Counted from the first letter of the stretch, positions 940-20,404 are shown. The stretch: 20,404 nucleotides of DNA from Candidatus Bipolaricaulia bacterium (GCA_046758705.1 JBHIAT010000053.1:1-20404), one strand, 5' to 3'. Notes: generated from the sequence alone by a model not told the origin. Program-made: numbers and translations.

Positions 940-1155
940 TTAGATCGTCTGAGTGCGAGTAGGCGCACTTGAGCCCTGGATCGCCGTTCCGCAGTGGGGG
1001 CAGAATACGAAACTCTCATTGACGACACTCCCACAGTTGGTGCACGTTATCGTAGCCCCTCGCTTTTCATGTTTCTCCTCATGGCCATGCTGGCCATGCC
1101 GGTGTCTATGCCCGTGCTCAGAGTCATGTCCATGACATCCGCCGCAACAACTCAT
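940..1155 (-). CDS. Small His/Cys-rich protein with C-terminal zinc ribbon (putative metal-binding/storage protein)
   Basis: 71 aa: CCGGC, 9 His in residues 8-29, then CTNC...CPHC. AAGGAGG RBS at 1161-1167; closely packed between the YHS gene and ftsH. Confidence 0.8.
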
Positions 1156-1169
1156 ATTGACCTCCTTAT

Positions 1170-1358
1170 TTAGTGGTGATGGGGATGCGACTTCCCCTCA
1201 GCCTCTTTCCCGATGTACTTCTCGGGGTCCTGTTCGAACTGTCGCTTGCAACCCGGTGCGCAGAAGTAGTACGTCTTCCCCTGGTATTCGTAGGTTGCAG
1301 CGACCTCATCCATCTTGATCTCCATGCCGCAGACGAGATCCTTCACCTTTTCGGCCAT
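1170..1358 (-). CDS. YHS-domain protein
   Basis: KDLVCGMEI...YEYQGKTYYFCAPGCKRQFEQDPEKY is the YHS signature; C-terminal HPHHH. Start moved to ATG 1358 because the ORF-track GTG at 1367 lies inside the AGGAGGTG RBS. Confidence 0.93.
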   Translation of the reverse strand: MAEKVKDLVCGMEIKMDEVAATYEYQGKTYYFCAPGCKRQFEQDPEKYIGKEAEGKSHPHHH

Positions 1359-1386
1359 CTGATTCACCTCCTTTCCGGGACCTCAT

Positions 1387-2019
1387 TTACAACACGCCGA
1401 CCGGTTCCTCAAAATCGCCGTCGGCCATGATCTCACCGTTCCCGTTGATCCGGATGGGCAGTTGGGGCAGGGGCCGGGGGGGCGGTCCGCTGATTACCGC
1501 CGCGCCCTGCTCCGGATCATAGAAACCCGCATGGCACGGACAATGGATAATCAACTCCCTGCCAAACCCCGTTTCCAGCTCTTCAAAGACGGTGCAGGCA
1601 AGGTGTGTGCACAGGGCGCTATAACCGACGAATCCCTCCGCCGTCCACTCCAGCCGAGTGGGCGGCTCGAATGCATCGGGGTCGAACCGGGCCAGGAGGA
1701 TAATTGTATCCTCAACCTGCTCCTTTCCCTGTGGGAAGGCCAGCACAGCTTCGCCGGGGGCCAGGCTCTCCCGGGTGATGACCGCTCCCCGGTTCGCTCC
1801 TTGGGCAAAGACCAACCGATCCCCGGGCGAGACGGGCGCTCCGACCTCCCCGCCCCCCACGGAGGGTTTGAGGAACCGGAGAATCGACAGGACCGAAGCG
1901 ACCAGGCTTCCGGCCCCCAATCCCATCAACCACTGCACCAGCCGCCGACGGCTGATCCTCACGCTCCAACGACCCCGATCCTCCAGCGCCGTCTTCCCCG
2001 ACCCCGACTCCAAGTCCAT
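1387..2019 (-). CDS. Rieske [2Fe-2S] protein, QcrA/PetC-like
   Basis: Box 1 CTHLAC, box 2 CPCHAGFYD, then GPPPRPLPQL. N-terminal SRRRLV twin-arginine-like motif followed by a TM anchor. Start is ATG 2019 or GTG 2028. Confidence 0.92.
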   Translation of the reverse strand: MDLESGSGKTALEDRGRWSVRISRRRLVQWLMGLGAGSLVASVLSILRFLKPSVGGGEVGAPVSPGDRLVFAQGANRGAVITRESLAPGEAVLAFPQGKEQVEDTIILLARFDPDAFEPPTRLEWTAEGFVGYSALCTHLACTVFEELETGFGRELIIHCPCHAGFYDPEQGAAVISGPPPRPLPQLPIRINGNGEIMADGDFEEPVGVL

Positions 2020-2089
2020 TTGAATCACCCCTCTCCTTTTCTGACCTGAAACTATTCATTCTCTCTTGTGATGTTCCTTGCTTTTCAGA

Positions 2090-4597
2090 TCACGATGCGG
2101 CCATCGGAGCTTTGAACCGCCGCAACCGCGTGGCATTGGATACTACCGAGACGGAGCTCGTCGCCATCGCTGCCGCGGCGAGGATCGGGTTCAGCAGCCA
2201 TCCAAACGCGGGGAACAGGATACCGGCGGCCACCGGGATGAGCGCCGTGTTGTACCCATAGGCCCAGCCCAGGTTCTGCTTGATATTGCGCATGGTTGCC
2301 TTCGACAGGGCGATCGCGGTGACAACCCCCCGGAGATCTCCCGAAACGAGCGTGATGTCAGAGGCCTCCATGGCTACATCTGTCCCGGTTCCGATGGCGA
2401 TCCCGATGTCGGCCTGAGCCAGTGCTGGGGAATCGTTGATCCCGTCGCCGACCATCCCGACAATGAGCCCTTCCTCCTGGAGGCGTTTCACCTCGTTGGC
2501 TTTGTCCTGTGGTAGAACCTCAGCCAGCACCCGATCGATGCCCACGCTCCTCGCGATCGCCTCGGCCGTCCGGCGGTTGTCTCCGGTGATCATGGCCACC
2601 TGGAGCCCGAGCCGATGAAGCTGGTTCACCGCCTCGACCGAGTTCTGCTTGAGGGTGTCGGCCACTGCGATGATCCCGGCGGCTGTCCTGTCGATCGCCA
2701 CGACCATCGGGGTCTTGCCATCGTCCGCCAGCGCCTCCAGCTTCGCCGTCAGCGAACCGACCGAAACTCTCTGACGCTCCATGTACTTCAGGTTGCCGAT
2801 GTGCACCGTATATCCGTCGACCCGGGCCTGGATGCCGTGGCCGGGAACGGCCTCGAAGCCATCGGGGTTGAGCAGTTCGATGCCGCGTTCCTTCGCTCCG
2901 TTGACGATCGCCTCCCCCAACGGGTGCTCCGAGCCACGCTCGGCGCTGGCGGTCAGCTGTAATACTTGGGCTTCGGTGAAGCCGTTCGTTACAACGACGT
3001 CGGTCAGCTCCGGCTCCCCCTTGGTGAGTGTCCCGGTCTTGTCGAGGATGATCGCGCTGAGTTTGTGGGCCGTTTCCAGCGCCTCGCCGCTGCGGATGAG
3101 AATGCCGTTCTCCGCGCCCTTGCCGGTGCCGACCATGATCGAGGTCGGCGTTGCCAGACCGAGGGCGCACGGACAGGCGATGATCAGCACGGCGACGAAG
3201 TTCAGCAGCGCATAGGTCAGCGCCGGAGCCGGTCCGAAGAAGTACCAGGTGATGAGGGTGATCACCCCAATTCCGATCACTCCGGGAACGAAGTAGGCGG
3301 TGACCTTGTCAACCAACCTCTGGATCGGAGCCTTGGAGCCCTGAGCTTCCTCTACCATCCGGATGATGTTTGCCAGCATCGTCTCCTTGCCGACCTTGGT
3401 GGCCTCGAATTTGAAACTGCCGGTCTTGTTGATCGTCGCGCCGATCACCTCGTCACCGTTGCGCTTCTCTACGGGAATCGACTCGCCGGTGATCATGGAC
3501 TCATCGACCGAGGAGTAACCGTCCACGACGATCCCGTCGACCGGGATCTTCCCCCCGGGTCGTACGACGACGAGGTCGCCTACGACCACCTCGTCCGCCG
3601 GAATATCCACTTCCTCCCCGTCCCGGATCACCCGGGCCGTCTTCGCCTGTAGCTTTATTAACTTCTTGATTGCCTGCGACGTCCGGCCTTTGGCGATCGC
3701 CTCCAGGTACCGCCCGATCAGGATCAGGGTGATGATGATCGTTGAGGTGTCGAAGTAGACCTCTTTGGCAATTCCCTGGGCTTCGAAGAAATCGGGAAAC
3801 AGGATCAAGGCAACGCTGTACAGGTAAGCCGCCGAGGTGCCGACGGCGATGAGGGTGTTCATGTCACTGGTCCTGTGCTTCAAAGCCGCCCAGGCCCCCC
3901 GGTAGAACTGCCATCCGACCCAGAATTGGACCGGGGTCGTCAGGATCCAGAGGACGACGAAGTTCTGAAGGATATCGGGCACCCAGGGGAAGAGTCGGGG
4001 ATAACTGCCGAAGAAGACCGGAACGCTGATGATCGCCCCGATCGCGATCTTGATCCTGAGCTGTCGCATCATCGCCTGGTGGGCTTGCTCCTGCCGATCG
4101 GCAATCTCCTCCGTCCCGGCTTCCACCACGACCGCCCGGTATCCCACGTCCGTCACTGCGTTCACAAACTCCTTGACTCCGGTCACATCGGGAAGGTACT
4201 CGATCGTCGCCTTCTCCGTGGCCAGGTTGACGGCTACATTGACCACCCCGTCCAGGTCGCGTAACGCCCCCTCGATCGTGGAGACACAGGAAGCGCACGT
4301 CATCCCCTCGATGGGGAAGATGACCTTGTCCACCGCCGTGTGGTATCCCAGATCTTCAACGGTCTCCACCAATCTTTTCGCATCGGTCTGTGTCGGGTCG
4401 AACTGGACGGTGGCCACCTCCGTGGCGAAGTTGACCTGGGCTTCCTGGACGCCGGCCACCTTTCCCAGGCCCTCCTCGATCTTCACCGCACAGCTGGCGC
4501 AACTCATCCCGGTGATCGGGAGATCGATCCGCTTCTTCAGGTTGTGCTTCGACTGTGAGCCTGCAATCCCGTCCTTGAGTTCCCCTGTACTGGCCAT
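2090..4597 (-). CDS. copA: Cu(I)-translocating P1B-1 ATPase
   Basis: Two HMA domains (GMSCASC, GMTCASC), TGES, transmembrane [20 protein letters not shown], and the YN and MxxSS (MATSS) Cu(I) ligands. GGAGG RBS. Confidence 0.97.
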
Positions 4598-4623
4598 GTC
4601 AACCTCCTAGATACGTGAAGTGA

Positions 4624-4914
4624 TCAACGCCGCCTGAACGCTTTCAGCAGGGCACGAATCGGGTCTGCATCCTCGTAGCGCTTCCCCCAGATGCGATATC
4701 CGGCCCGCTCGATCGCCGCCTCGATCGCCTGGCGGCTGGGCTTATCGGGCTCGCATCGCACTGTCACCCGGTCGGTGGCCTTGTCGTAGCCCATCCCAAC
4801 GAAACCATCGAGCTGCTTCAGCTGTTTGACCATCCGCTCCGGATAGCAGCAGCCGATGAACTTGAGTCGGAACGTCTCGGTTCTGGTGCCTGTATCCTGC
4901 TTCAGTTCTGCCAT
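4624..4914 (-). CDS. HMA-like (CopZ-like) small protein with atypical metal loop
   Basis: From ATG 4914 (RBS AGGAGGAGG): TETFRLKFIGCCYPERMVKQLKQLDGF...VTVRCEP...IEAAIERAGY matches the HMA secondary-structure pattern and the AGY terminus. Directly upstream of copA. Confidence 0.72.
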   Translation of the reverse strand: MAELKQDTGTRTETFRLKFIGCCYPERMVKQLKQLDGFVGMGYDKATDRVTVRCEPDKPSRQAIEAAIERAGYRIWGKRYEDADPIRALLKAFRRR

Positions 4915-4941
4915 TGTTGGAGTCCTCCTCCTTGCCTTTGT

Positions 4942-4967
4942 TATCCCACCCCACCTGGGGTGGGGTA
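4942..4967. promoter_or_regulatory. CsoR/RcnR-like operator palindrome, copy 1
   Basis: TAT-CCCACCCCA-CC-TGGGGTGGG-GTA: perfect 9-bp inverted repeat just downstream of the -10 box of the HMA-copA unit. Confidence 0.8.
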
Positions 4968-4974
4968 CACCCAT

Positions 4975-5003
4975 ACTATATCACACGATCGACCGTTTGT
5001 CAA
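4975..5003 (-). promoter_or_regulatory. Sigma70-type promoter of the HMA-copA-Rieske-YHS-ftsH unit
   Basis: Minus strand TTGACA (5003-4998), 17-nt spacer, TATAGT (4980-4975), with a TGn extended -10. Confidence 0.85.
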
Positions 5004-5089
5004 GGGAGCCCATCCTATCCTGAGTACACCCTGTCTCATCCCTCTCCATTGCAGAGGATTTCGGCGTCGAGGTCGGGCCAATGTCACCT

Positions 5090-6304
5090 CTATCTCTTGA
5101 GAAGTTTGCGCAGCGTCAGGCTCGGCCCGCCAATCCCCCAAAGATAGAAGTAGGCGATCAGGTTCTTCAGCGTTCGCGCCGTCCAGCCGGAGAAGTGCAA
5201 TCGGAGGCGTCCCAGATGCAACACCCCCAAAGCGTCCTTGCGTCCCAAACTCAAGAACGTGCCGAGTCGCTTGGGCTGGAAGGGTTGAGGGGCGCGACCT
5301 GCCAGCTTGCAGGACAGGTTTCTCGCGGCCCAATACCCTTGCTGAAATGCAATCTGGGCGGTGGGTGGCAAGGGGTGCCCCTGGTTGTCAACCGCCAGCG
5401 AGCTGTCTCCAAGGATGTAAACGTCGGAGTGGTCGCGAGCCTGTAAGAACTCGTCGACGTACGCCCGACCCTGACGGTCAACCGCAAACCCACTTTGCTC
5501 GACCAGACGGTGGCCGCGCACGCCGCCGGCCCAGATGATCACCCCGGCCTCCAGGCACCGCCCGTCCTTCAACGCCACACAGTGGGGCTCCACACGGGCG
5601 ATGGGAACCCCTGTGACCAGCTCCACCCTTTTATGCATCAGGGTATTTGTCGCCTGCTTGATCAGCAGGGGATCGAAACCGGGAAGGATCGTTTCCGATC
5701 CTTCCACCATCGTGATGTGGATCTCCTCGGGATCCAGGTCGAAGGTCTTGGCCAGATACGGCCGCCAATCGGCCATCTCACTGGCTCGCTCGACCCCGGT
5801 GAACCCGCCTCCCCCGATGAGAATGCGGGGGCGCCAGCGCGCAGCAGGATTTTTGTCATAGGCGACCATGGCCAGCTCGATTTGACTGTGGATCAGGTGG
5901 GCGCTGCTCAGATCGTGTAGCACGAGCGCATGCTCCTCCAGACCCTGGATCTGGTAATACTGCGGCTCCCAGCCCAGCGCGACGATCAGGGCGTCGTAAC
6001 GGAGGGTCTTTATCTCGCCGCGCGTCTGCACCTCAACCTGACGACCTCGGAGGTCGATGGCTTGGACGGTGCCGCGCATGACGTCGATCTCGGGGTTGAG
6101 CAGTCTGGGCAGGTAGACGGAGACCTCTTCATAGGGCGTGTGCCAGACGGCCGGATGGTGCAAGATCGTCGTCAGGTAATGGTAGTGGTGATCGTTCACC
6201 AAAGTGACCTGAGCTGTGCCCGAGGCGGCCAGCCGGCGCAGGCGGACGGCGGCGGTCACCCCGGCATAGCCTCCGCCAAGGATGAGGATTCGGGTCTTGC
6301 TCAC
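5090..6304 (-). CDS. ndh: Type II NADH:quinone oxidoreductase-like FAD protein
   Basis: GGGYAG (FAD), GGGFTGVE (NADH), acidic residue in ITMVE, VIIWAGG, YILGDSS, the AQxAxQ quinone motif (PPTAQIAFQQG) and a C-terminal membrane-anchor region. Confidence 0.88.
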   Translation of the reverse strand: MSKTRILILGGGYAGVTAAVRLRRLAASGTAQVTLVNDHHYHYLTTILHHPAVWHTPYEEVSVYLPRLLNPEIDVMRGTVQAIDLRGRQVEVQTRGEIKTLRYDALIVALGWEPQYYQIQGLEEHALVLHDLSSAHLIHSQIELAMVAYDKNPAARWRPRILIGGGGFTGVERASEMADWRPYLAKTFDLDPEEIHITMVEGSETILPGFDPLLIKQATNTLMHKRVELVTGVPIARVEPHCVALKDGRCLEAGVIIWAGGVRGHRLVEQSGFAVDRQGRAYVDEFLQARDHSDVYILGDSSLAVDNQGHPLPPTAQIAFQQGYWAARNLSCKLAGRAPQPFQPKRLGTFLSLGRKDALGVLHLGRLRLHFSGWTARTLKNLIAYFYLWGIGGPSLTLRKLLKR

Positions 6305-6310
6305 CCTGAT

Positions 6311-6838
6311 TCACCCCTGTTTCGCTCTGCTGCGCTCAGGACGGAGGAGCCAGCTGCCCACCAGCAGGCTCAACCCGAGCACGAGACCGATGACGGTCCA
6401 ATCCTGTGACGATTTCGGCTGGTCGAGCTCCATGAACGCCGCGGTGGGTTCTCGGGGTTCCTGAGTTGCGGGGCTGGCACTCGCGGCGATCGCGAGCTCG
6501 AAGGTGGCGCTCACGCCGTTGGCGCCGATGGCCTTGAGCAAGTAGGTGCCGGGCGGTATATCGGGCGGGATCGCCACGTTCGTTTTAAACCCGCCGTCCT
6601 CGTCCCCCTGGACTTGGCCCAGGCGGAACTTGCCCTTGAGGCCCTCTAAGAAGAGCGCGATCGGACCGTTCGGGTTGATATCGCCCCCCTCTACAAAGAT
6701 CGTCTCTGCCGGAGCGACCGTCTGCGGATAGCTGTTCACCTCCGCACCTTCGTGAGCCCAGCCCACCGGCCCAAAGACCAAAAGGGCGAGCAAGACGATC
6801 AGCGCCCGGCGTCTGTATAATCCTACTTTGCGTCTTAT
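6311..6838 (-). CDS. Exported, C-terminally anchored Ig-like protein with predicted mature N-terminal His
   Basis: Signal peptide ending GWA-HEG, beta-rich domain (GGFKTNVAIPPDIPPGTYLLKAIG), Pro/Ala linker, C-terminal TM and basic tail. The full signal peptide needs an ATA start at 6838; the ORF track uses TTG 6793. Confidence 0.75.
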   Translation of the reverse strand: MRRKVGLYRRRALIVLLALLVFGPVGWAHEGAEVNSYPQTVAPAETIFVEGGDINPNGPIALFLEGLKGKFRLGQVQGDEDGGFKTNVAIPPDIPPGTYLLKAIGANGVSATFELAIAASASPATQEPREPTAAFMELDQPKSSQDWTVIGLVLGLSLLVGSWLLRPERSRAKQG

Positions 6839-7050
6839 CTTTTCTCCCTTCTTGGGTGTCGTCGATCAGTGAGATACAGAATCCGCGCCGTTGCCAGCAG
6901 ACCCACGGCCAGCGCTGCTAATCCTAGGGACACCAGAAGCCAGGCGAAAGGATCGCCGCCTCCGGAAACCAGGATTTTCCCTCCCGTGTACACCCCGATC
7001 ATGCCGAGCGTCGCCAACAGGAGATAGCCGAGAAAGCGCTTGACGATCAT
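6835..7050 (-). CDS. Small two-TM membrane protein, unknown function
   Basis: 71 aa with two hydrophobic helices. Its ATG abuts the cytochrome b stop codon; GGAGGAGG RBS. Confidence 0.75.
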   Translation of the reverse strand: MIVKRFLGYLLLATLGMIGVYTGGKILVSGGGDPFAWLLVSLGLAALAVGLLATARILYLTDRRHPRREKR

Positions 7051-8172
7051 TCAGGCACCTCCTCCCATCTCGATGTGGCTCACCGGCGGCGTGAGCGCCA
7101 CGTACAGGGTCAAGCCAATCAACAGGAACAGCAGGATGACGCCGACGATGAGCGTCACCGGCCGCCGTCGCGGTGCCAGATAGGGACTGCGATCGAGGAA
7201 GGGAACGAGCGCAAGCAGAACGAAGAGCGCGACCGGGATCCAGAGCAGCGCGGCGGTTCCGATCCAGTCTTCAAACGCATAGAGCCACAGGAACATCCAC
7301 GGCGGTTTGGTGACCTCCGCGCCCGGCACCGGCGCAAACCCCAGCGGCGCGGGCCAGATCAGCGCCAACCCACCGGCCAGCGCGAGCAGCCACAGGCCAT
7401 AGCCGCTCATACGCCTGAGGTGCGCGGAGAAGCGACCTGCCCCCTCCTTGCCCCGGGTGCCGGCCCGCGCCTCGGCCGTCGGGCGCGGCGAGATGCCCTG
7501 ATACTTGACTAGCATGAGGTGGACTGCAATCAGGATCAACAGGAGCGCCGGAAGCACGGCGATGTGAACGGCGTAGAGGCGGACGAGCATCGGCACACTC
7601 AGCGTGAAGCTCTGAGAGAACCAGGCCCCCAGTCCGCCCAACAGCTGTGAGAAGGCCATGTTGTGGAGCATCGCCTCGTAGGCCTCCTGATCCCACTTGA
7701 GGATCGTGCCGGTGAAGATGGAGCCGACGATGATGGCGAGCAGCCCCACGCCGGACAGCCAGTTGACCTCCCGGGGCCGCTTGTACGCGCCGGTGAAGAA
7801 GACCCGGATCAGGTGTAGGAGCACGGTGACCGTCACCAAGCTCGCCGTCCAGTAGTGAATACCCCGGATGAAGTTGCCCAGGGACGCCTGTTGCACGATG
7901 TAGACGACGCTGTCGTGCGCTTGGCCCGGGTCGGGGTTGTAGTACTGGGTGAGGTAGATACCGGTGGCGATCAAGATCACGAAGCCGAAGAGCGTGATGC
8001 CACCCAGCATATAGGGCAACGTATTGGCATGCTCGGGAACCGGATAGCTTAACGCGCTCAGCCCTAATCGCTCATCCAACACCTCCCAAAAACGTTGCTT
8101 CCAACCTGTTGTTTGCGTCGAAGTTTTTGTTGTTGATTCTTTTGTTGCTGATTCTACTTTCTGATTTGTCAT
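7051..8172 (-). CDS. Cytochrome b subunit of a Rieske/cyt b complex (fused b6-like and subunit IV-like domains)
   Basis: LGGITL, heme His pairs GIHYW...LLHLIRVFFTGAYKRPREVNWLSG and AVHIAVLP...AVHL, FTGTILKWDQ, KPPWMFLWLY (PEWY position) and LVPFLDRS. Confidence 0.93.
   Translation of the reverse strand: MTNQKVESATKESTTKTSTQTTGWKQRFWEVLDERLGLSALSYPVPEHANTLPYMLGGITLFGFVILIATGIYLTQYYNPDPGQAHDSVVYIVQQASLGNFIRGIHYWTASLVTVTVLLHLIRVFFTGAYKRPREVNWLSGVGLLAIIVGSIFTGTILKWDQEAYEAMLHNMAFSQLLGGLGAWFSQSFTLSVPMLVRLYAVHIAVLPALLLILIAVHLMLVKYQGISPRPTAEARAGTRGKEGAGRFSAHLRRMSGYGLWLLALAGGLALIWPAPLGFAPVPGAEVTKPPWMFLWLYAFEDWIGTAALLWIPVALFVLLALVPFLDRSPYLAPRRRPVTLIVGVILLFLLIGLTLYVALTPPVSHIEMGGGA
8125..8154. repeat. 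15-bp tandem duplication in the cytochrome b N-terminal extension
   Basis: TTTTGTTGTTGATTC / TTTTGTTGCTGATTC, 1 mismatch; encodes ESATK-ESTTK. Confidence 0.7.
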
Positions 8173-8201
8173 CTTACACTCCTTAGATTCTGTCAGAGGG
8201 G

Positions 8202-8243
8202 GGACCGTCGGCCCCCTTCCAACTGCGGCAGGGCCGACGGTCC
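8202..8243. other. Intergenic stem-loop between the DOMON and cytochrome b genes
   Basis: GGACCGTCGGCCC (8202-8214) and GGGCCGACGGTCC (8231-8243) form a perfect 13-bp stem with a 16-nt loop. No U-tract follows on the coding strand. Confidence 0.7.
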
Positions 8244-8268
8244 TCCATCCGGGCCCACGCGACTTCTC

Positions 8269-8871
8269 TTAGCCTGCGCTCACTGTTCCCGCGAACAGGT
8301 CCACCGTCACCGCAACGCGATTTTGGCCGTGGTAGTTGTTCAGGTTGTCTTGCTCTCCGTAGGCTAACAGCATCGTTTGTTGACCGGGTGTCAGGGCTGC
8401 GTCGAACTCATCTCCGGTGTTCAGCTTGCGAACGAACTCCAGCGTCGTGTCCGCTTCGGTCTGGATGGCCACGGCGGATTCAATATCGTCGGTGCCGCCG
8501 AGGAACGTGTCGGCCATGGGCGGGCTTATGGGGGATTGCTGGAAAGCGTCCAGGATATCGGTCTCCCCATCCTCGTCGTGGAAGAAGCCCAGGATCATGT
8601 CTGCATCTCGTTTTTTAAGCCCTGTTGAGGTAAAACCGATGCCCAGCCAGCCTGTGGTCGGCGCTTCCAGCGCAAACGTGATTGCGCCTTCCTCGATATC
8701 AACAGTCCAGTGGACCTTCATGTTTAGGTCCTCGTTAGTGTAGTGATGATCATACTCTCCGTCGTTGACGATTCCATCCACCACGGGACCGCCCTCATGG
8801 GCCAAGCCCCCCCAAGCCAGCATCAGGGCAGCCAACGCCGCCAATGTACCTAACGTGATTGTGCGTTTCAT
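8269..8871 (-). CDS. Secreted DOMON-domain protein (putative Met/His heme-binding)
   Basis: Signal peptide ending GLA-HEG. DOMON motifs TGWLGIGF, DADMILG, TTLEFVRKLNTGDEFD and LLAYG...NYHG; AGGAGG RBS. Confidence 0.85.
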   Translation of the reverse strand: MKRTITLGTLAALAALMLAWGGLAHEGGPVVDGIVNDGEYDHHYTNEDLNMKVHWTVDIEEGAITFALEAPTTGWLGIGFTSTGLKKRDADMILGFFHDEDGETDILDAFQQSPISPPMADTFLGGTDDIESAVAIQTEADTTLEFVRKLNTGDEFDAALTPGQQTMLLAYGEQDNLNNYHGQNRVAVTVDLFAGTVSAG

Positions 8872-8915
8872 CTTTGTCCTCCTGTATTTCGCCGTTGTAT
8901 GGCTTTGTTATCTTA

Positions 8916-8945
8916 ATTATCCCACCCCAGGAGGGGAGGGGTCAA
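8916..8945 (-). promoter_or_regulatory. Putative promoter of the DOMON-cyt b-ndh unit with CsoR-like operator copy 2 in its spacer
   Basis: Minus strand TTGACC (8945-8940), 18-nt spacer, GATAAT (8921-8916) with TGn. On the plus strand the spacer region reads TAT-CCCACCCCA-GG-AGGGGAGGG-GT, the same palindrome with 2 mismatches in the right arm. Confidence 0.7.
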
Positions 8946-9072: not shown

Positions 9073-11532
9073 TTACAGATCGCTACCCGCCGGGTGTAGC
9101 GTGCGCTCGATAGTCGGTGTCTTGAGATAGCGTGGCTTCCACAGCAGCGTCAGCGCCGGAAGCACGATCAGCGTGAACAACACGCTCACCAGCAGGGCCA
9201 GTGCGGTCAAGCCGCCCAGCAGCCGAATGTGCTGGCCGCCGGCTAACAGCAGCACCGCGAACCCTGCACCCACCGACAGCGAGTTGATCAAGATCGCCAC
9301 ACCCGTGGTCTGCAGGGTTTTGAGCAAGGCTGCTTGCTCATCGCCGGATCGTTCGAATTCCAGCCTGAAGCGGCTGGTGAAGTGGATCGCATAGTCAATC
9401 CCCAGCCCAATGGTGATACTGGCGACCATCGCGGTGAACGAGTCCAGGCCGATGCCGAAGTAGCCCAACACAGCGAAGTTCACCAGCAGGGTCAGCGCCA
9501 CCGGAACGATCCCCAGCAGCCCGGCTTTCGGCGAACGGAAGATCAAGATCAGCAGGATCGTGACCGCCGCCAAGGCGAGCAGGGTGCTTTCGATCTGCGT
9601 GGGCAGCAACTCCTTTTCCATCCGATCCAGCACCGGAGCGAGCCCGGTCAACTCGGCCGAGAGTGGCACGGTGCGCACGGCCTCCATGCCGTATTGGGCC
9701 TGCAAGGAGGCGTATTCTTCCGGACTGAGGGCTAACGTCGCCGCGGCCTGTTGAGCCTCCGGACGGTTCAGCGCCTCACGCGCGGCTTCGGACACTTGAG
9801 TCACATCGACCACAATCAGCTCGCGGGGCAGGCGATCCAGGAAGGCGTCCGCCGCCTCCACCGCCCGGCTGATGACGGCCGTGCCCAGCGAGGCCACCTT
9901 GGCCTGGATCAACGCCTCCTGGCCATCTGTGCGCACCATCTGATCCAGGAAACCTTGTCCTCGGAGCAGGAGCCACAGGTTGTTCACCTGGTCACGATCG
10001 GCCGGCACGGCAAATCGACCGGTCAGCGCTCCATTCATCTCGGCCAGGATCGAGGCGATCGACGTGGCCTCGCTCACGTTTGGCAACGTGTTTAGATAGC
10101 GCTCTATCGTGTACATGGTCTCAAGAGTGATCGGGTCCTGGATATCGCCCTTGACCGAGATCAACAGGGGCAACGAACCGCCGAACTCGTCGCGCAGCAG
10201 CATCTCGGCCTGGTAGGGTTTGCTGCCCCGCGCCAGGCACAGCGACCAATCCACGTTCATCACGATGCGGGGAATGCCCACCGCGAGCAACGCCACCAAG
10301 CCTACAGTGAGCAGCGCCACCGCGCTCGGTCGCCGGTAGATCAGCCTGCCCAAGCCGGCCATGATGCGGCTTTCTCCTCGGCTGCTGCGCGGCTTCTGGG
10401 CATCATCGTCAGCCTTCGAAGCGGACGTTCGTCCTCGGCCGAACGACAGTCCCGCCGGGATCACGATCAAGGTAGCCACCAGCGCCAAAAAGATCCCCAG
10501 CGAGGTGACCCAACCGAACGTCCGAATGATGTCAAAGTCCGAGATGGCCAGCGAGCCGAACCCGATGATCGTGGTGATCGACGTGAATACGATCGGCGCA
10601 CCCAATTCCTTCATAGTGATTTGGACGGCCTCGCGGTGTCCGGCCCCGTCCGCATGTGCTTCGTAAAAGCGCCGCATAAAGTGAATGCCGTCCGCCGAGC
10701 CCATCGCAATCAGGATCACGGGCGCGATCCCGACGAGCATGTCGATAGGACGACCCAACAGTGCCAGGATGCCCACCGTCCAAACCACGGCCAACAACAC
10801 CACAACAAGCGGCACCAACACCCCGCTCAGGCGACGGAAGCTCAGCGCCAACACGCCGACCAAAAGCAGAATGATAAGCGGCACGAGGAAGAACAGGTTG
10901 TCCATGATCAATCCCGTCATGGAATAGACGAGAAACGGCATCCCGCCATAGTAGATATTCTCGGTGTCCGGCGCGATCTGTTGGGTGATTTGATCGATCC
11001 GGTCGGCGACGTTGAAGTGGTTGGCTTGCGGTGCGAGACGGAGCAGGATGACGGCCGTTGTGCCCGCTTGGTTGATAATCGTGCCGACGTACATCTCCTG
11101 GGAGAGCACGTAACGTCTGAGCTGCTCTAATGTTTCAGGGGTGTCCAGGAAGGGTTTTCCTTCGAGCAGCATGCCCACCCTGAGGCTGCCATCATCCGCC
11201 TTTTCGAGGGCGACCACGTTGATCAGGCTGGTCGCCGAATCCACCCCATCGATGGTCCCATAAGCTTGGGTCAGCTGATCGATCAGGGTCAGATTTTCTG
11301 TTGTGAAGACGTCGTCGGTCTTGACGAGCACCATGCCGATATAGTTGGACTTAAACACCTCATCCACGCGGTTGAACTCCTGGACGAGAGGGCTGTCTTG
11401 AGAGAGATACGTGGAGAAATCGCCGTTCAGCTCGGTCCTCATCACCCCAATCCCCAGGAGCACGGTGAGCACCAGGACAGCTATCAGCAGGGGTGCCCGC
11501 CGGCGCAGCACGAAGTTTGTCAGCGTTTCCAT
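9073..11532 (-). CDS. MMPL-family (RND superfamily) transporter
   Basis: Two repeats of 1 TM, a large soluble loop and 5 TM, with motifs MGSADGIHF and GLGIDYAIHF. Start moved to ATG 11532 because GTG 11544 lies in the RBS. Confidence 0.9.
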   Translation of the reverse strand: METLTNFVLRRRAPLLIAVLVLTVLLGIGVMRTELNGDFSTYLSQDSPLVQEFNRVDEVFKSNYIGMVLVKTDDVFTTENLTLIDQLTQAYGTIDGVDSATSLINVVALEKADDGSLRVGMLLEGKPFLDTPETLEQLRRYVLSQEMYVGTIINQAGTTAVILLRLAPQANHFNVADRIDQITQQIAPDTENIYYGGMPFLVYSMTGLIMDNLFFLVPLIILLLVGVLALSFRRLSGVLVPLVVVLLAVVWTVGILALLGRPIDMLVGIAPVILIAMGSADGIHFMRRFYEAHADGAGHREAVQITMKELGAPIVFTSITTIIGFGSLAISDFDIIRTFGWVTSLGIFLALVATLIVIPAGLSFGRGRTSASKADDDAQKPRSSRGESRIMAGLGRLIYRRPSAVALLTVGLVALLAVGIPRIVMNVDWSLCLARGSKPYQAEMLLRDEFGGSLPLLISVKGDIQDPITLETMYTIERYLNTLPNVSEATSIASILAEMNGALTGRFAVPADRDQVNNLWLLLRGQGFLDQMVRTDGQEALIQAKVASLGTAVISRAVEAADAFLDRLPRELIVVDVTQVSEAAREALNRPEAQQAAATLALSPEEYASLQAQYGMEAVRTVPLSAELTGLAPVLDRMEKELLPTQIESTLLALAAVTILLILIFRSPKAGLLGIVPVALTLLVNFAVLGYFGIGLDSFTAMVASITIGLGIDYAIHFTSRFRLEFERSGDEQAALLKTLQTTGVAILINSLSVGAGFAVLLLAGGQHIRLLGGLTALALLVSVLFTLIVLPALTLLWKPRYLKTPTIERTLHPAGSDL

Positions 11533-11603
11533 GATGACATTCACCCTTTTAGGAAACGATCTAAAGCATCAATCCACGCTTACAACACCGTCGTCATAAC
11601 CGC

Positions 11604-14467: not shown

Positions 14468-15055
14468 TCAGCGTTGAAAATGCCAGCGCATCTCATCAGG
14501 GTGCTTTAACCGCTCCAGCACCTTGAGCTCGATCTGACGGACCCGTTCCCCGCTCAGACCCACAATCTTTCCGACCTCCCTGAGCGTCTTCGACTTCCCA
14601 TCCACCAACCCGTAACGCAGTTCCAGGATCCTGCGCTCCTTGTCGCTCAACCGGCTGAGCGACCGATCCAGATCCCGCCTCAGCAACTCCTCAAACCCCT
14701 GTTCGCTTGGAGACGGAGCGTGGTGATCCTCGATGAACTCAACAAACAACTCGTTCCCGTCATCGCCGACCGGTTCGTCGAGCGAGGCAATCTGCCGGGG
14801 AACTCGTTCGATAGCCTGTAGACGCTCCACCGGGGTCTCCAACTCGTCAGCGAGCTGTTCAGGGTCAGGGGGCTGTCCATACGCCTCTAAGTGAGCTTGT
14901 TTCGTTCCCTCGACCTTGTTGATCTCTCCGATGATGGTGGAGGTTTGGTGGGCACCGATATCGGCTCGATCGATCAGCAGGATTCTGCCGCTGAGATGGG
15001 AGGCGACGCTCAACCCGGCGAAACTCGCTCCGGCGATCACCACCTCGTAGTCCAT
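14468..15055 (-). CDS. Chimeric ORF: 40 N-terminal aa of the FAD oxidoreductase fused in frame to sigma70 regions 3-4 (possible pseudogene)
   Basis: Residues 1-40 (MDYEVVIAGASFAG...HQTST) are a Rossmann start, and 14936-14990 is identical to 20350-20404. The remainder aligns without gaps to the sigma gene at 18499-18962. ORF is uninterrupted with an AGGAGGT RBS. Confidence 0.85.
   Translation of the reverse strand: MDYEVVIAGASFAGLSVASHLSGRILLIDRADIGAHQTSTIIGEINKVEGTKQAHLEAYGQPPDPEQLADELETPVERLQAIERVPRQIASLDEPVGDDGNELFVEFIEDHHAPSPSEQGFEELLRRDLDRSLSRLSDKERRILELRYGLVDGKSKTLREVGKIVGLSGERVRQIELKVLERLKHPDEMRWHFQR
14473..14936. repeat. Direct repeat, copy A (sigma 3' half); partner is 18499-18962
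   Basis: Offset 4026 bp. By manual count, 14473-14786 has 2 mismatches in 314 bp and 14787-14936 has about 38 mismatches in 150 bp. Confidence 0.95.
14936..14990. repeat. Direct repeat, copy A (oxidoreductase 5' part); partner is 20350-20404
   Basis: 55/55 identical up to the window edge; offset 5414 bp. Confidence 0.95.
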
Positions 15056-15089
15056 GATCGGACGACCTCCTCTCTTCGAGGGTGCTCCT

Positions 15090-15113
15090 ACCCCACCCCA
15101 GGTGGGGTGGGGT
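15090..15113. promoter_or_regulatory. CsoR/RcnR-like operator palindrome, copy 3
   Basis: ACCCCACCCCA-GG-TGGGGTGGGGT: perfect 11-bp inverted repeat just downstream of the -10 box. Confidence 0.8.
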
Positions 15114-15120
15114 CACTCAT

Positions 15121-15149
15121 ACTATACCACATGATCGGCCGTTTGTCAA
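15121..15149 (-). promoter_or_regulatory. Sigma70-type promoter of the chimera-ICMT-MBL-HAD-MMPL unit
   Basis: Minus strand TTGACA (15149-15144), 17-nt spacer, TATAGT (15126-15121) with TGn. Homologous to the promoter at 4975-5003, including the spacer. Confidence 0.85.
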
Positions 15150-16645: not shown

Positions 16646-17566
16646 TCAGGCGATCCTGGATTTCATCTTCTTCAACTGCCCCTTCGTCTTGGACTTGGAG
16701 TTGGAGTTGGATTGTTGCAGTTGTTCCAGGACGTTGGCCGCCATGCAGTCGTAATCGACCGCTTCCCCACGGCACAGCTTCTCCAGGATGACCTGGGCAA
16801 CGGGGAGACCGAACTCCTCCAGGAACCGGGCCGACTTCTCATCGCTGAACCGCCTCCCCGGGCCGTAATCGACCGAACCGTCCGGGTCTCGATAGCTACC
16901 GCTCAACACACAATGGAGTTGATCTTTGCCGCCCTCCCACTTCCGTCCGAGGAGTCTCACGATCTCGTCTCCGGCATCGATCTTGCGAATCGGATGGAGC
17001 AGCTCGATCCCGAACTCCGCCAGCAGTTTGGCGTAGTGATCGAGGACGATCCCTCGCTGGTTAACCTTGATCCCCCGCTGGTGAATCTCCCGCTCTCCGC
17101 TGATGACGACGCGGCAGCCGATATGTCGGGCGAGCGGCACCCGGATGGCGTGGATGTAGAGATGGCAGCCGACGCACGAGGTGAAAAAGCCGAACTGTTC
17201 ATAGAGTAGATGCTGATACCGCAGATTGAGGGCCAGCCAGAACTTGGGCGAGCCGATCACGGTCGCCTCCAGGACGTGCTCTGCCCCGATCTGGTCACGG
17301 AGCATCTCGATCGCCGCCTCGACCGTGTCCAGACTCCCATACTGGGCGCCATTGTAGGCGACCGTCGGCAGCAAGACGTTCACGTGCCCCTCCTCGAACG
17401 CCTTGATCGCTGCGGCAATGCTGTCCCGGCCGGCGATCTCCACGATCGCTAACCCCGGTATCTCACGCAACTGCGCCGCGCGGTCGATGATCTCTTCCGG
17501 GATGGTGATCTCAGGCTGTTCGGCGAACCGTTCGACAAGGCGCTCACGGATCCCTATAGACTTCAT
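16646..17566 (-). CDS. Uncharacterised protein, adenine nucleotide alpha-hydrolase (PP-loop)-like, with CxxC
   Basis: LAIVEIAGRDSIAAA resembles the beta-strand plus SGGxDS loop; also SCVGCHLYIH, VISGE and QLHCVLS. Start is uncertain (17566, 17584 or 17596). Confidence 0.7.
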   Translation of the reverse strand: MKSIGIRERLVERFAEQPEITIPEEIIDRAAQLREIPGLAIVEIAGRDSIAAAIKAFEEGHVNVLLPTVAYNGAQYGSLDTVEAAIEMLRDQIGAEHVLEATVIGSPKFWLALNLRYQHLLYEQFGFFTSCVGCHLYIHAIRVPLARHIGCRVVISGEREIHQRGIKVNQRGIVLDHYAKLLAEFGIELLHPIRKIDAGDEIVRLLGRKWEGGKDQLHCVLSGSYRDPDGSVDYGPGRRFSDEKSARFLEEFGLPVAQVILEKLCRGEAVDYDCMAANVLEQLQQSNSNSKSKTKGQLKKMKSRIA

Positions 17567-17638
17567 ATTTATCTGTCGCTTCACCCCCTGGGTCAAGTAG
17601 GCAATGTCGCCGAATTGGAAGCATAACTGGAACCGGAC

Positions 17639-18469: not shown

Positions 18470-19381
18470 TTATACCGTACCTTTCACCAGCTTCTGTTGT
18501 TGAAAATGCCGGCGCATCTCATCAGGGTACTTTAACCGCTCCAGCACCTTGAGCTCGATCTGACGGACCCGTTCCCCGCTCAGACCCACAATCTTTCCGA
18601 CCTCCCTGAGCGTCTTCGACTTCCCATCCACCAACCCGTAACGCAGTTCCAGGATCCTGCGCTCCTTGTCGCTCAACCGGCTGAGCGACCGATCCAGATC
18701 CCGCCTCAGCAACTCCTCAAACCCCTGTTCGCTTGGAGACGGAGCGTGGTGATCCTCGATGAACTCAACAAACAACTCGTTCCCGTCATCGCCGACCGGT
18801 TCGTCGAGCGAGACGATCTGCCGGGGAATCCGTTCGAGAGCCCGTAGATGTTCCACCGGGATCTTCAATTCATCAGCGAGCTGCTTCGGGTCGGCGGGCT
18901 CCTCGTACATCTCCAGATGAGCCTGCTTCGCTTCCTTGACCCTCCTGATATCCCCAGTGATGTGAGCCGGGATCCGGATCACCCATGACTGGTCGTCGAG
19001 CGCCCGGGTGATCGTCTGGCGGATCCACCACGTGGCATAGGTGCTGAACTTACAGCCTTTGCGCCGGTCAAACTTATCGACCGCCTTGATCAGACCTATA
19101 TTCCCCTCTTGGATGAGGTCAAGAAATGGAACGCCGTACCCCCGGTACCGTTTGGCGATGCTGACGACCAGCCGGAGGTTAGCGAGGATGAGCCGCTCGC
19201 GGGCGCTCTCATCCCCTGCCTCAACCCGTCTGGCAAGTTCCAGCTCTTCATCTTTGGAGAGAAGTGACACCCGGCCGATCTCCCTGAAGTAGATGGAGAT
19301 CGAATCCTTGGCCTTGGAACCGCTATTTGAGCCGTCGACCGGTCCGGTTCGGGGCATCGTCATCGTTTTCATGGCGTTCAC
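18470..19381 (-). CDS. RNA polymerase sigma70 factor, RpoD/RpoS-like, without region 1.1
   Basis: Region 1.2 [11 protein letters not shown]; region 2 [31 protein letters not shown] and [11 protein letters not shown]; region 3.2 SLDEPVG; region 4.2 TLREVG...ERVRQIE. Start GTG 19381 follows AGGAGG (alternative ATG 19372). Confidence 0.95.
18499..18962. repeat. Direct repeat, copy B (sigma 3' half); partner is 14473-14936
   Basis: 18530-18812 is identical to 14504-14786 (283 bp). Confidence 0.95.
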
Positions 19382-19446
19382 GATTCTTCCTCCTGTTTCA
19401 GTTGATGCCGTGGCACTTCGGATGTCTGTAAGACCACTCACACCCA

Positions 19447-20404
19447 TCACGGCAGGATGCTGATGTATTCTCTCTGCACATGTTGCACCAGCCCTCGGTT
19501 CTTTAAGGACTTTACCAGGACGGCCCGCACCGGTTCTGAAGAACTGATCAGCAAACCTTGCCCGTGCAGCAACCGATCGTAGTGCAGGCGTTTCTCCATC
19601 ACGTACCGCTCGTACTCCTTCAGCCCTGCCTCCAATCCCATCTTTCCATCGATAATCTTTTGGATGATGGCTCCACATCTCCTGCCGAACTTGAGGCTTG
19701 GCCATATCCCCTCGGCGCTCAGCGGGAGGGCCTGGCCGGCAGAATCCCCCACCAGAAAGATCTCGCCAACGACCGGTCTCCGCAAACCGTAAGGGATAAA
19801 ACCGCCGTGCATCTCATCGCCCAACCCCACCCCCAATCGATCGAGGAATGTTTCCAGGTTCTCCTTGATCCGGGTCTCGCCTGCGTAACTGGCTACCCCG
19901 ATCCTCGAGCGGTCCCCGATGGGGAAGATCCAAAACACACCCTGAGGGATCAGCTGCTCATCCAGATAGAAGTGGATCCGGTCGTCCCGATAATCGGCGA
20001 CCGTTTCGAGCCCAAACGCCAAGCTGTTGCTGTCGACGAAATCCGGCCGCAGCGAGCTGGCCAACACCGCCCGCCCGCCGGTGCAATCGACGATGCACTT
20101 TCCGGTGAAGCGACCGGCGTTCGTGATCACGGTCCGGCCCTCCAAGGCGATGACCCCGGCTCTCAGGGAATCGGCCTGAGTCTTTGCAAACAGGAGTTTG
20201 CAGAACTTGCGGTAGTCCAGGGTACAGTATGGCCTGACGAGCTTCACATCGACCCGCTCGTTGGCCATCTCGAACCGCATCGTGTCCAAAACCTGGAGCA
20301 CAGCCGCTTCGCACCCGATCTCCTGGATCAACGCATACGGGGCGCCGCAGGTGGAGGTTTGGTGGGCACCGATATCGGCTCGATCGATCAGCAGGATTCT
20401 GCCG
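19447..20404 (-). CDS. FAD-dependent oxidoreductase, geranylgeranyl reductase/lycopene cyclase-like (5' end beyond the window)
   Basis: The frame stays open to the edge ([22 protein letters not shown]...). Motifs IVDCTG, FWIFP...RIGV and [18 protein letters not shown]. Confidence 0.88.

Follow-up and report, generated by a model that had tools for sequence, protein, structure and literature searches.

A cytochrome b paired with an N-terminal-histidine protein is the conserved core of a gene unit linked to copper-type operators in a Candidatus Bipolaricaulia bacterium

What is a respiratory-type cytochrome b doing among copper genes, and which of the redox proteins encoded around it belong with it? 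The question is raised by positions 1387-8945 of a 20,404-nucleotide stretch of DNA from a Candidatus Bipolaricaulia bacterium (GCA_046758705.1 JBHIAT010000053.1:1-20404), here called the window and analyzed over its full length. From the sequence alone, this region had been read as a copper-linked electron-transfer chain of five parts, namely NDH-2, cytochrome b, a Rieske protein, a DOMON protein, and an exported protein whose mature form begins with histidine (the His1 protein), with no c-type cytochrome. Comparison with other loci gives a smaller system. Its conserved, mobile core is a cytochrome b of one clade (clade A), usually a peptide with two transmembrane helices (the 2-TM peptide), and the His1 protein.

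The window is the whole of one contig of a 3.7-Mb metagenome-assembled genome (G000), and its long genes are all on the minus strand. A close relative of this genome is labeled Candidatus Fraserbacteria. Three sequencing runs from a single study, labeled hydrothermal vent metagenome, contain the window DNA, and two of them are a possible source.

A conserved core of cytochrome b and the His1 protein

All of the genes named in the sequence-only reading are present where it placed them, on the minus strand. The genes from DOMON to NDH-2 lie consecutively behind an operator at 8921-8940 and make up one unit (unit 2), as had been proposed:

8269-8871, minus strand: secreted DOMON protein of 200 amino acids (PF03351, E 1.9e-19)
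7051-8172, minus strand: clade-A cytochrome b of 373 amino acids (PF00033, E 3.8e-30)
6835-7050, minus strand: 2-TM peptide of 71 amino acids, no family; abuts the cytochrome b stop codon
6311-6838, minus strand: His1 protein, counted from a probable ATA start (6311-6793 and 160 amino acids from TTG), no family
5090-6304, minus strand: NDH-2, the last gene of unit 2 (full-length match to 4nwz)

The gaps between successive genes are, in order, 96 nucleotides, 0, an overlap, and 6 nucleotides.

The phylum set comprised 183 other genomes, four of which (G071, G100, G102, and G104) carry an ortholog of the window cytochrome b with 58-85% identity. At all four loci the cytochrome b gene is followed by the His1 gene, either directly or after a 2-TM peptide, and the cytochrome b-His1 pair is present in five of the five phylum genomes with this cytochrome b, the window genome included. 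A DOMON gene lies upstream in G071 and G102 and in neither G100 nor G104; it is thus found at three of the five Fraserbacteria loci. No NDH-2 or Rieske gene was detected at the four related loci (6-20 kb each; tblastn, E ≤ 1e-4). When the genome contigs were searched with the His1 protein, a single locus was returned, which is the G102 locus.

Metagenomes were scanned with a 12-sequence subfamily of His1 proteins that is about 30% identical to the window protein, and 13 loci were recovered. A clade-A cytochrome b (54-64% identity) is encoded directly upstream of the His1 gene at 10 of the 13. Two of the remaining three have fewer than 310 bases upstream, and the third, the weakest match, has 511 bases with no match. 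At most of the metagenome loci a 2-TM peptide is encoded between the cytochrome b and His1 genes, and five of the six loci that exceed 3.5 kb have CopA within a few kilobases. Searches of all 13 loci (about 69 kb in total, E ≤ 1e-3) returned no DOMON, Rieske, or NDH-2 gene.

A search of 400 further genomes by cytochrome b alone added two, from other phyla, with 45-46% identity. The immunoglobulin (Ig)-type His1 protein is absent from both. In its place, the gene directly upstream of cytochrome b encodes a protein with a signal peptide, a mature start at A/HGG (the slash marks cleavage), an acidic Met/His-rich stretch, and a transmembrane helix at the C-terminus. Near these loci there are a MerR-family-like regulator (assigned by eye), a thioredoxin-like gene, and a YHS match; neither Rieske nor NDH-2 was found beside cytochrome b at the two loci. 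The constant feature across these loci is therefore a clade-A cytochrome b together with a membrane-tethered exported His-first protein in a copper or metal neighborhood. The reverse association, from cytochrome b to a His1 protein, rests on 5 + 2 genomes.

The five-part chain does not hold up as a conserved system. It splits into the core, a DOMON protein found only in Fraserbacteria, and an NDH-2 and a Rieske protein that accompany the core in this genome alone, with no Rieske or NDH-2 gene found beside clade-A cytochrome b at 4 + 13 + 2 other loci. No locus was seen in which close homologs sit in an ordinary qcr operon with cytochrome c and without copper genes.

The clade-A cytochrome b

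The window cytochrome b is a fused protein, b6-like with a subunit-IV-like part. It aligns to cytochrome b6 (1vf5_A, E 7.8e-36) over both heme-binding helices and all four heme histidines. The ligands His106, His120, His203, and His218 line up with those of b6, are invariant in 12 of 12 clade members, and have the b6-like spacing H-x13-H and H-x14-H. The position of the b6 heme-ci cysteine is occupied by methionine. A family scan matched the protein to PF00033 and PF13631 only, with no b561 family among the matches.

The ef loop reads VTKPPWMF and contains, within a conserved TKPPW stretch, a Qo-type motif, PPWM. The motif is PPWM or PPWL across the clade and PPWQ at the two distant loci; the pattern for Rieske/cytochrome b complexes is P-[EDVP]-W-[YF]. 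In the available text of PMC4122944, the six major Qo patterns end in Y or F, and PPWF is given for archaeal SoxN and SoxC. Three histidines on the predicted outer side (H86, H170, and H366) and a KWDQE motif are conserved in the 12 aligned clade-A members; H86 is replaced by Asn in the two distant genomes.

Five cytochrome b loci are present in the window genome, and the window protein is 29-38% identical to the other four. A candidate explanation of the unit as the cell's only complex III was rejected on this count. In a tree, clade A is split from the clade of the paralog on contig C4 (clade B) and from the other paralogs by a branch of length 1.42 with support of 100/97. Clade A is large, with at least 1545 clusters at E ≤ 1e-60 (8000 candidates scored), and the few named clusters are proteins of Chloroflexi/Anaerolineae metagenome-assembled genomes called "cytochrome b6" or similar.

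A very divergent cytochrome b-like protein of 437-438 amino acids (PF00033, E 2e-16, long branch) sits in the copper islands of G071 and G100 (L011:2703-4019, minus strand, and L012:15258-16571, plus strand). In G071 it is adjoined by an EamA transporter, and at locus L040 an EamA gene lies between copA and cytochrome b. Elsewhere in G000 (C120:1249-5360), a Rieske gene and a short cytochrome b of 259 amino acids are followed by RnfC-like and RnfD-like genes, as judged by eye.

The His1 protein

The His1 protein has a signal peptide ending in GWA/HEG and, at its C-terminus, a transmembrane helix. Its model shows a seven-strand Ig-like sandwich (predicted local distance difference test, pLDDT, >90 for residues 18-102) followed by the C-terminal helix. 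No ATG, GTG, or TTG of the gene is placed so as to yield a normal signal peptide, and the first canonical start is the TTG at 6793. An in-frame ATA at 6836-6838 overlaps the TAA stop (6835-6837) of the 2-TM gene and would give a signal peptide of 28 residues. This overlap points to coupled translation from a rare start codon, or else to an assembly error.

A profile of the protein retrieved 1953 proteins at E ≤ 0.001, which constitute an unnamed family. Many are single-domain proteins of 165-200 amino acids; giant Ig-repeat proteins match by domain only. The first mature residue is His in 43 of 43 diverse members, and the N-terminal His pattern was matched in 50 of 51, the exception reading Pro-His-Glu. 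Certain members have Met- or His-rich linkers. There was no DUF1775 or CopC profile match for the protein, and no copper-chaperone fold stood out in fold searches of the domain. A PDB profile search with the family returned titin Ig domains, with CopC at E 0.27-0.47 only. The nearest ESM Atlas clusters (score 0.90, a lead only) are annotated "hypothetical protein". An N-terminal His serves as a copper ligand in YcnI, CopC, and LPMOs, as stated in excerpts of PMC8424229, and by analogy the His1 protein probably holds copper.

Two exported Gly/Met-rich proteins were seen in copper contexts. One, at L041:4869-5735, lies in a copper neighborhood and reads ALA/HGGG after the signal peptide; the other, at C200:874-1632 of G000, is encoded behind a perfect operator.

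Copper-type operators and the second unit

The window contains three copies of a 20-bp G-tract palindrome, CCCACCCC-N4-GGGGTGGG. Those at 4945-4964 and 15092-15111 are perfect and that at 8921-8940 has one mismatch. Each coincides with or closely follows one of the three strongest promoter matches on the minus strand:

8916-8945, minus strand: promoter P2, TTGACC-18-GATAAT, overlapping the CsoR-type operator at 8918-8943
4942-5003, minus strand: promoter P1, TTGACA-17-TATAGT, then the perfect operator at 4942-4967
15089-15149, minus strand: third promoter, TTGACA-17-TATAGT, with a perfect operator; heads the unit that ends in an MMPL/HAE3 transporter

Published CsoR operators are G-tract pseudopalindromes of the same class, according to excerpts of PMC3902906. 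The window is a copper island of three CsoR-type promoter-operator units. The genes behind P1 (unit 1), together with the transporter gene and a spacer element, are as follows:

4624-4914, minus strand: CopZ-like HMA-fold protein (weak MerP-like match, E 0.0023)
2090-4597, minus strand: CopA copper P1B-ATPase with two HMA domains (NF007952, E 3.6e-233)
1387-2028, minus strand: Rieske [2Fe-2S] protein with an RRR anchor (PF00355, E 3.8e-6; boxes CTHLAC...CPCH)
1170-1367, minus strand: YHS-domain protein with a His tail (PF04945)
940-1155, minus strand: Cys/His-rich cytoplasmic zinc-ribbon protein of 71 amino acids (zinc-ribbon families; contains CGGCH)
9073-11544, minus strand: MMPL/HAE3 transporter, end of the upstream unit
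8196-8249, minus strand: stable hairpin in the DOMON-cytochrome b spacer (-43 kcal/mol, z -2.15); it has no U-tract and is not called a terminator

The finding spans two copper-type units because operator copies head both. The Rieske gene lies about 5 kb away behind copA and under the same operator, as had been noticed, and the proposed copper link is upheld by the shared operators and by copA as a neighbor here and at most of the longer metagenome loci. Copper induction of both units is predicted from these operators. Elsewhere in the genome there are just four operator sites with at most one mismatch (two on C70, one each on C176 and C200). These and two sites with two mismatches (C70 and C176) lie ahead of or next to genes for CopA-type ATPases, a CcdA-like protein, and an exported protein rich in Met, identities that were in part assigned by eye from the translations. 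Four CsoR-family matches were found in the genome. The module is preceded by the operator in G071 and G100 too, and by a degenerate form in G102.

The absence of a cytochrome c with a CxxCH motif had also been claimed. The motif itself occurs twice in the window, as CGGCH at the start of the zinc-ribbon protein, its sole carrier near the cluster, and as CVGCH in a cytoplasmic open reading frame at 16646-17596. Both proteins lack a signal peptide, so the window contains no c-type cytochrome and no gene for an exported CxxCH protein.

In two CopZ-like proteins, GCC or GCGC replaces the HMA CxxC motif; the window protein has GCC, and a further case lies at C147:2628-2846 of G000. The likely true start of the window CopZ-like gene is the ATG at 4914, downstream of the operator. 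The hairpin in unit 2 may give differing levels of the secreted DOMON protein and of the products of the membrane genes.

The DOMON protein

An AlphaFold2 model of the DOMON protein (pLDDT 81) gave as its best Foldseek matches the DBH DOMON domain and the heme b cytochrome domains of cellobiose and pyranose dehydrogenases (CDH and PDH), and ethylbenzene dehydrogenase gamma and NxrC were among the other structural matches. The best PDB profile matches reached only E 0.17-0.2. The mature N-terminus is His-Glu in eight of eight clade members. Met92 and His181 are candidate heme b ligands, assigned by analogy and spaced like M90 and H174 of HYP1, an Arabidopsis b561-DOMON protein. HYP1 reduces Cu(II), and M90/H174 is its proposed heme pair (excerpts of PMC10784544). 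The window protein is probably a Met/His heme b protein by this analogy.

A proposed outward electron path to copper

We read the module as a copper-regulated, quinol-fed conduit that would carry electrons outward to copper at the His1 protein, acting as a quinol:Cu(II) reductase or as a copper redox-poising complex. This tentative reading draws on analogy with known systems, and we give it a probability of roughly 0.45. If the core proteins form a complex, it would draw electrons from the quinol pool, the two b hemes would carry them to the outer face, and they would be delivered to copper bound at the His1 protein, beside the CopA exporter. In Fraserbacteria, the secreted DOMON protein would serve as an added outer relay. 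In the window genome alone, an NDH-2 paralog predicted to be copper-induced is appended and would refill the quinol pool, and a Rieske paralog with the same predicted induction lies in the copA unit. One possible purpose would be the supply of Cu(I) to outer handling or efflux, for example by the operator-controlled MMPL unit. E. coli NDH-2 is reportedly a cupric reductase.

Copper is taken to be the object because of the copA pairing, the operator, the invariant N-terminal His, and the Met/His-rich variants. A quinol:Cu(II) reductase is favored because transfer of electrons between the outer face and the quinone pool is what a diheme cytochrome b does. Outward flow is favored because potentials rise in the order quinol < b hemes < DOMON-type heme b < Cu(II)/Cu(I), so that it is downhill. 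An outward path to copper, as the sequence-only reading had it, is thus kept as the most economical account, with the correction that Rieske and NDH-2 are not core parts.

Several observations weigh against this account. In G104 neither operator nor copA is near the module, and in G071 and G102 copA is absent from the DNA at hand; CsoR-family repressors, moreover, respond to other signals as well. His1 is the sole invariant residue in its family. The His1 protein matches no Pfam family at E ≤ 0.01 (NPCBM_assoc reaches E 0.011), and fold searches gave generic Ig/MG matches only (lowest Foldseek E 3.9e-5; a VIA Z of about 10, amid numerous unrelated entries). The candidate heme ligands of the DOMON protein do not stand in fixed columns. 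Six of the 10 sequences have the Met two residues earlier, three of the 10 have Asp in the His column and a further His two positions before it, and a DOMON paralog on C4, 34% identical to the window protein, is without the Met. These offsets are compatible with a register shift on two strands, which is no proof of a heme site. Extra Cu(I) during copper stress is not obviously useful, and we know of no worked-out chemistry for a Rieske-free bc-type cytochrome b with a Qo-like motif.

Rieske and NDH-2 as possible partners

The window NDH-2 matches 4nwz over its full length (E 1.7e-85, residues 1-400), with YjlD and S. aureus NDH-2 next, and is 77% and 74% identical to copies in unrelated surroundings on contigs C91 and C77. 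The window Rieske protein is 84% identical to the Rieske protein on C4. On these identities, both are recent in-genome paralogs.

The C4 Rieske gene belongs to a second conserved triad (L036:884-5385 in G000, also L032-L035), which encodes a DOMON protein with a C-terminal membrane tail, a Rieske protein, and a 445-residue cytochrome b with the motif PDWY. The triad looks like a Rieske/cytochrome b complex with DOMON in place of cytochrome c1. In G000 the next gene encodes a cytochrome cd1 (NirS-like); copA comes directly after the triad at L034 and about 2 kb downstream of it at L032. Rieske orthologs in G071, G102, and G104 (50-57% identity) are found in loci of this type, with the order DOMON (with the transmembrane tail), Rieske, cytochrome b. 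In G100 there are only weak Rieske matches, with 32-36% identity.

The full chain as first proposed would have the window Rieske protein and cytochrome b run a Q cycle fed by NDH-2, with electrons passing through the DOMON heme to surface copper. It is favored by the copies of one operator that control Rieske and cytochrome b, by the retained Qo-type motif, by the intact Rieske cluster boxes, and by the conservation of DOMON-Rieske-cytochrome b triads in the lineage. The triads, however, employ the other cytochrome b clade, which is 29% identical to clade A and separated from it by the long branch, and the window Rieske protein is a close copy of the triad's own. No Rieske gene was found beside clade-A cytochrome b at the 4 + 13 + 2 other loci, and G100 possesses the module with nothing better than its weak Rieske matches. 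We regard the full chain as unlikely.

It is likewise unlikely that the two units collect parts for back-up respiration under copper stress, namely an NDH-2 free of iron-sulfur clusters, a spare Rieske protein, and an alternative quinol-oxidizing cytochrome b, with the His1 protein as a structural or redox subunit and copper not a substrate. Copper damages exposed iron-sulfur clusters, and NDH-2 and Rieske are recent paralogs drawn from housekeeping contexts and now under copper-type control, in a genome with five cytochrome b loci and several terminal oxidases. The conserved core nevertheless travels without NDH-2 and Rieske and with copA, and this explanation leaves the invariant N-terminal His and the Met/His-rich partners unaccounted for.

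Direction of flow and nature of the acceptor

With the electron flow reversed, the module would be an oxygen-independent cuprous oxidase, a membrane analog of CueO in which Cu(I) exported by CopA would be oxidized to Cu(II) at His1 and the electron passed into the quinone pool. Such an enzyme would make sense in a CsoR detoxification regulon and next to copA, and oxygen is possibly scarce in the hydrothermal vents named by the metagenome runs. Transfer from Cu(I) to the b hemes or menaquinone is, however, uphill by standard potentials, and the genome already has two multicopper-oxidase matches; we consider this direction distinctly unlikely. An argument for it from the lack of any multicopper oxidase was rejected on account of the same two matches.

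Electrons might instead be supplied outward to an acceptor other than copper, such as envelope protein repair of the MsrQ-MsrP type or another metal, with His1 not a copper ligand. MsrPQ is a copper-induced periplasmic repair system fed by a diheme b protein, and thioredoxin-like and CcdA-like genes occur in the operator regulon and at the distant loci. Among the genes beside the module, however, none for a repair enzyme is conserved, and an invariant N-terminal His in exported proteins is known as a copper ligand (excerpts of PMC8424229); we consider such an acceptor improbable. Equally improbable is a "copper Q cycle" in which a copper center of the His1 protein, anchored by a single pass on the outer face and with its metal bound by a histidine, would replace the Rieske head at the Qo site, giving copper-dependent quinol oxidation free of iron-sulfur clusters with copper as cofactor or terminal acceptor. 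Many Chloroflexota-like bacteria would then carry such a complex beside copA.

Relation to known systems

CbsA of the archaeal SoxNL-CbsAB system is an outer b-type cytochrome. The clade-A protein shares with the Rieske/cytochrome b complexes (bc1 and b6f) and with SoxNL-CbsAB the four His ligands, with b6-like spacing. Its Qo-type motif begins PPW, as does the PPWF of SoxN and SoxC (available text of PMC4122944), and like SoxNL-CbsAB the module is without a c-type cytochrome. It differs in that the core has no Rieske gene, in having M, L, or Q, not Y or F, as the fourth Qo residue, and in being putatively copper-regulated, copA-linked, and bacterial (found in Fraserbacteria and on Chloroflexota-like contigs). 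The module lacks two features that define Rieske/cytochrome b complexes, a conserved Rieske partner and a c-type cytochrome.

The proposed mode of action resembles that of the CYBDOM proteins (for example HYP1) and Dcytb, in which a diheme b membrane protein and an outer DOMON heme b make a three-heme conduit to extracellular Fe(III)/Cu(II) (excerpts of PMC10784544). The membrane part in the window is bc/b6-type (PF00033) and not b561, so the module is not a member of this group, and the likely donor is quinol rather than ascorbate. The window DOMON protein, moreover, is separate, secreted, and missing from most loci, and a dedicated His1 partner is added.

YcnI and CopC resemble the His1 protein in the signal peptide, the mature N-terminal His, the β-sandwich, the C-terminal transmembrane helix (YcnI), and the copper-gene neighborhood, as described in excerpts of PMC8424229. 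The His1 protein lacks their DUF1775 and CopC profiles, has a generic Ig/MG fold in which no equivalents of the Glu and Trp of the DUF1775 mono-His brace could be assigned, and is partnered by cytochrome b instead of CopD or YcnJ. The window regulon shares with CsoR copper regulons (copZA and others) a G-tract pseudopalindromic operator overlapping copZ-like and copA promoters, and it differs in adding an electron-transfer operon, NDH-2, a Rieske protein, and an MMPL transporter unit. The module differs from known systems in having no b561 domain, no DUF1775 profile, and no Rieske protein in its core. A full-text literature search, with supplements outside its scope, found no published description of the cytochrome b-His1 module.

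If the proposed conduit is correct, many uncultured bacteria would use a respiratory-type cytochrome b to connect extracytoplasmic copper chemistry with their quinone pool, on the scale of the clade-A clusters counted above, the named ones being from Chloroflexota. A new family of N-terminal-His proteins would join bacterial copper handling, and copper homeostasis, so far mainly a matter of pumps, chaperones, and oxidases, would gain an electron-transfer arm. A clade now annotated "cytochrome b6" or "bc complex" would be given a function, and a Rieske-free bc-type cytochrome b would become open to experiment.

A rearranged gene in the island

Behind the operator at 15092-15111, the minus-strand open reading frame at 14468-15055 is chimeric, with about 40 N-terminal residues like an FAD-binding fold fused to sigma-70 regions 3-4. 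The window also has a full rpoD-like gene, at 18470-19705. The chimeric frame is probably a rearrangement scar within the copper island.

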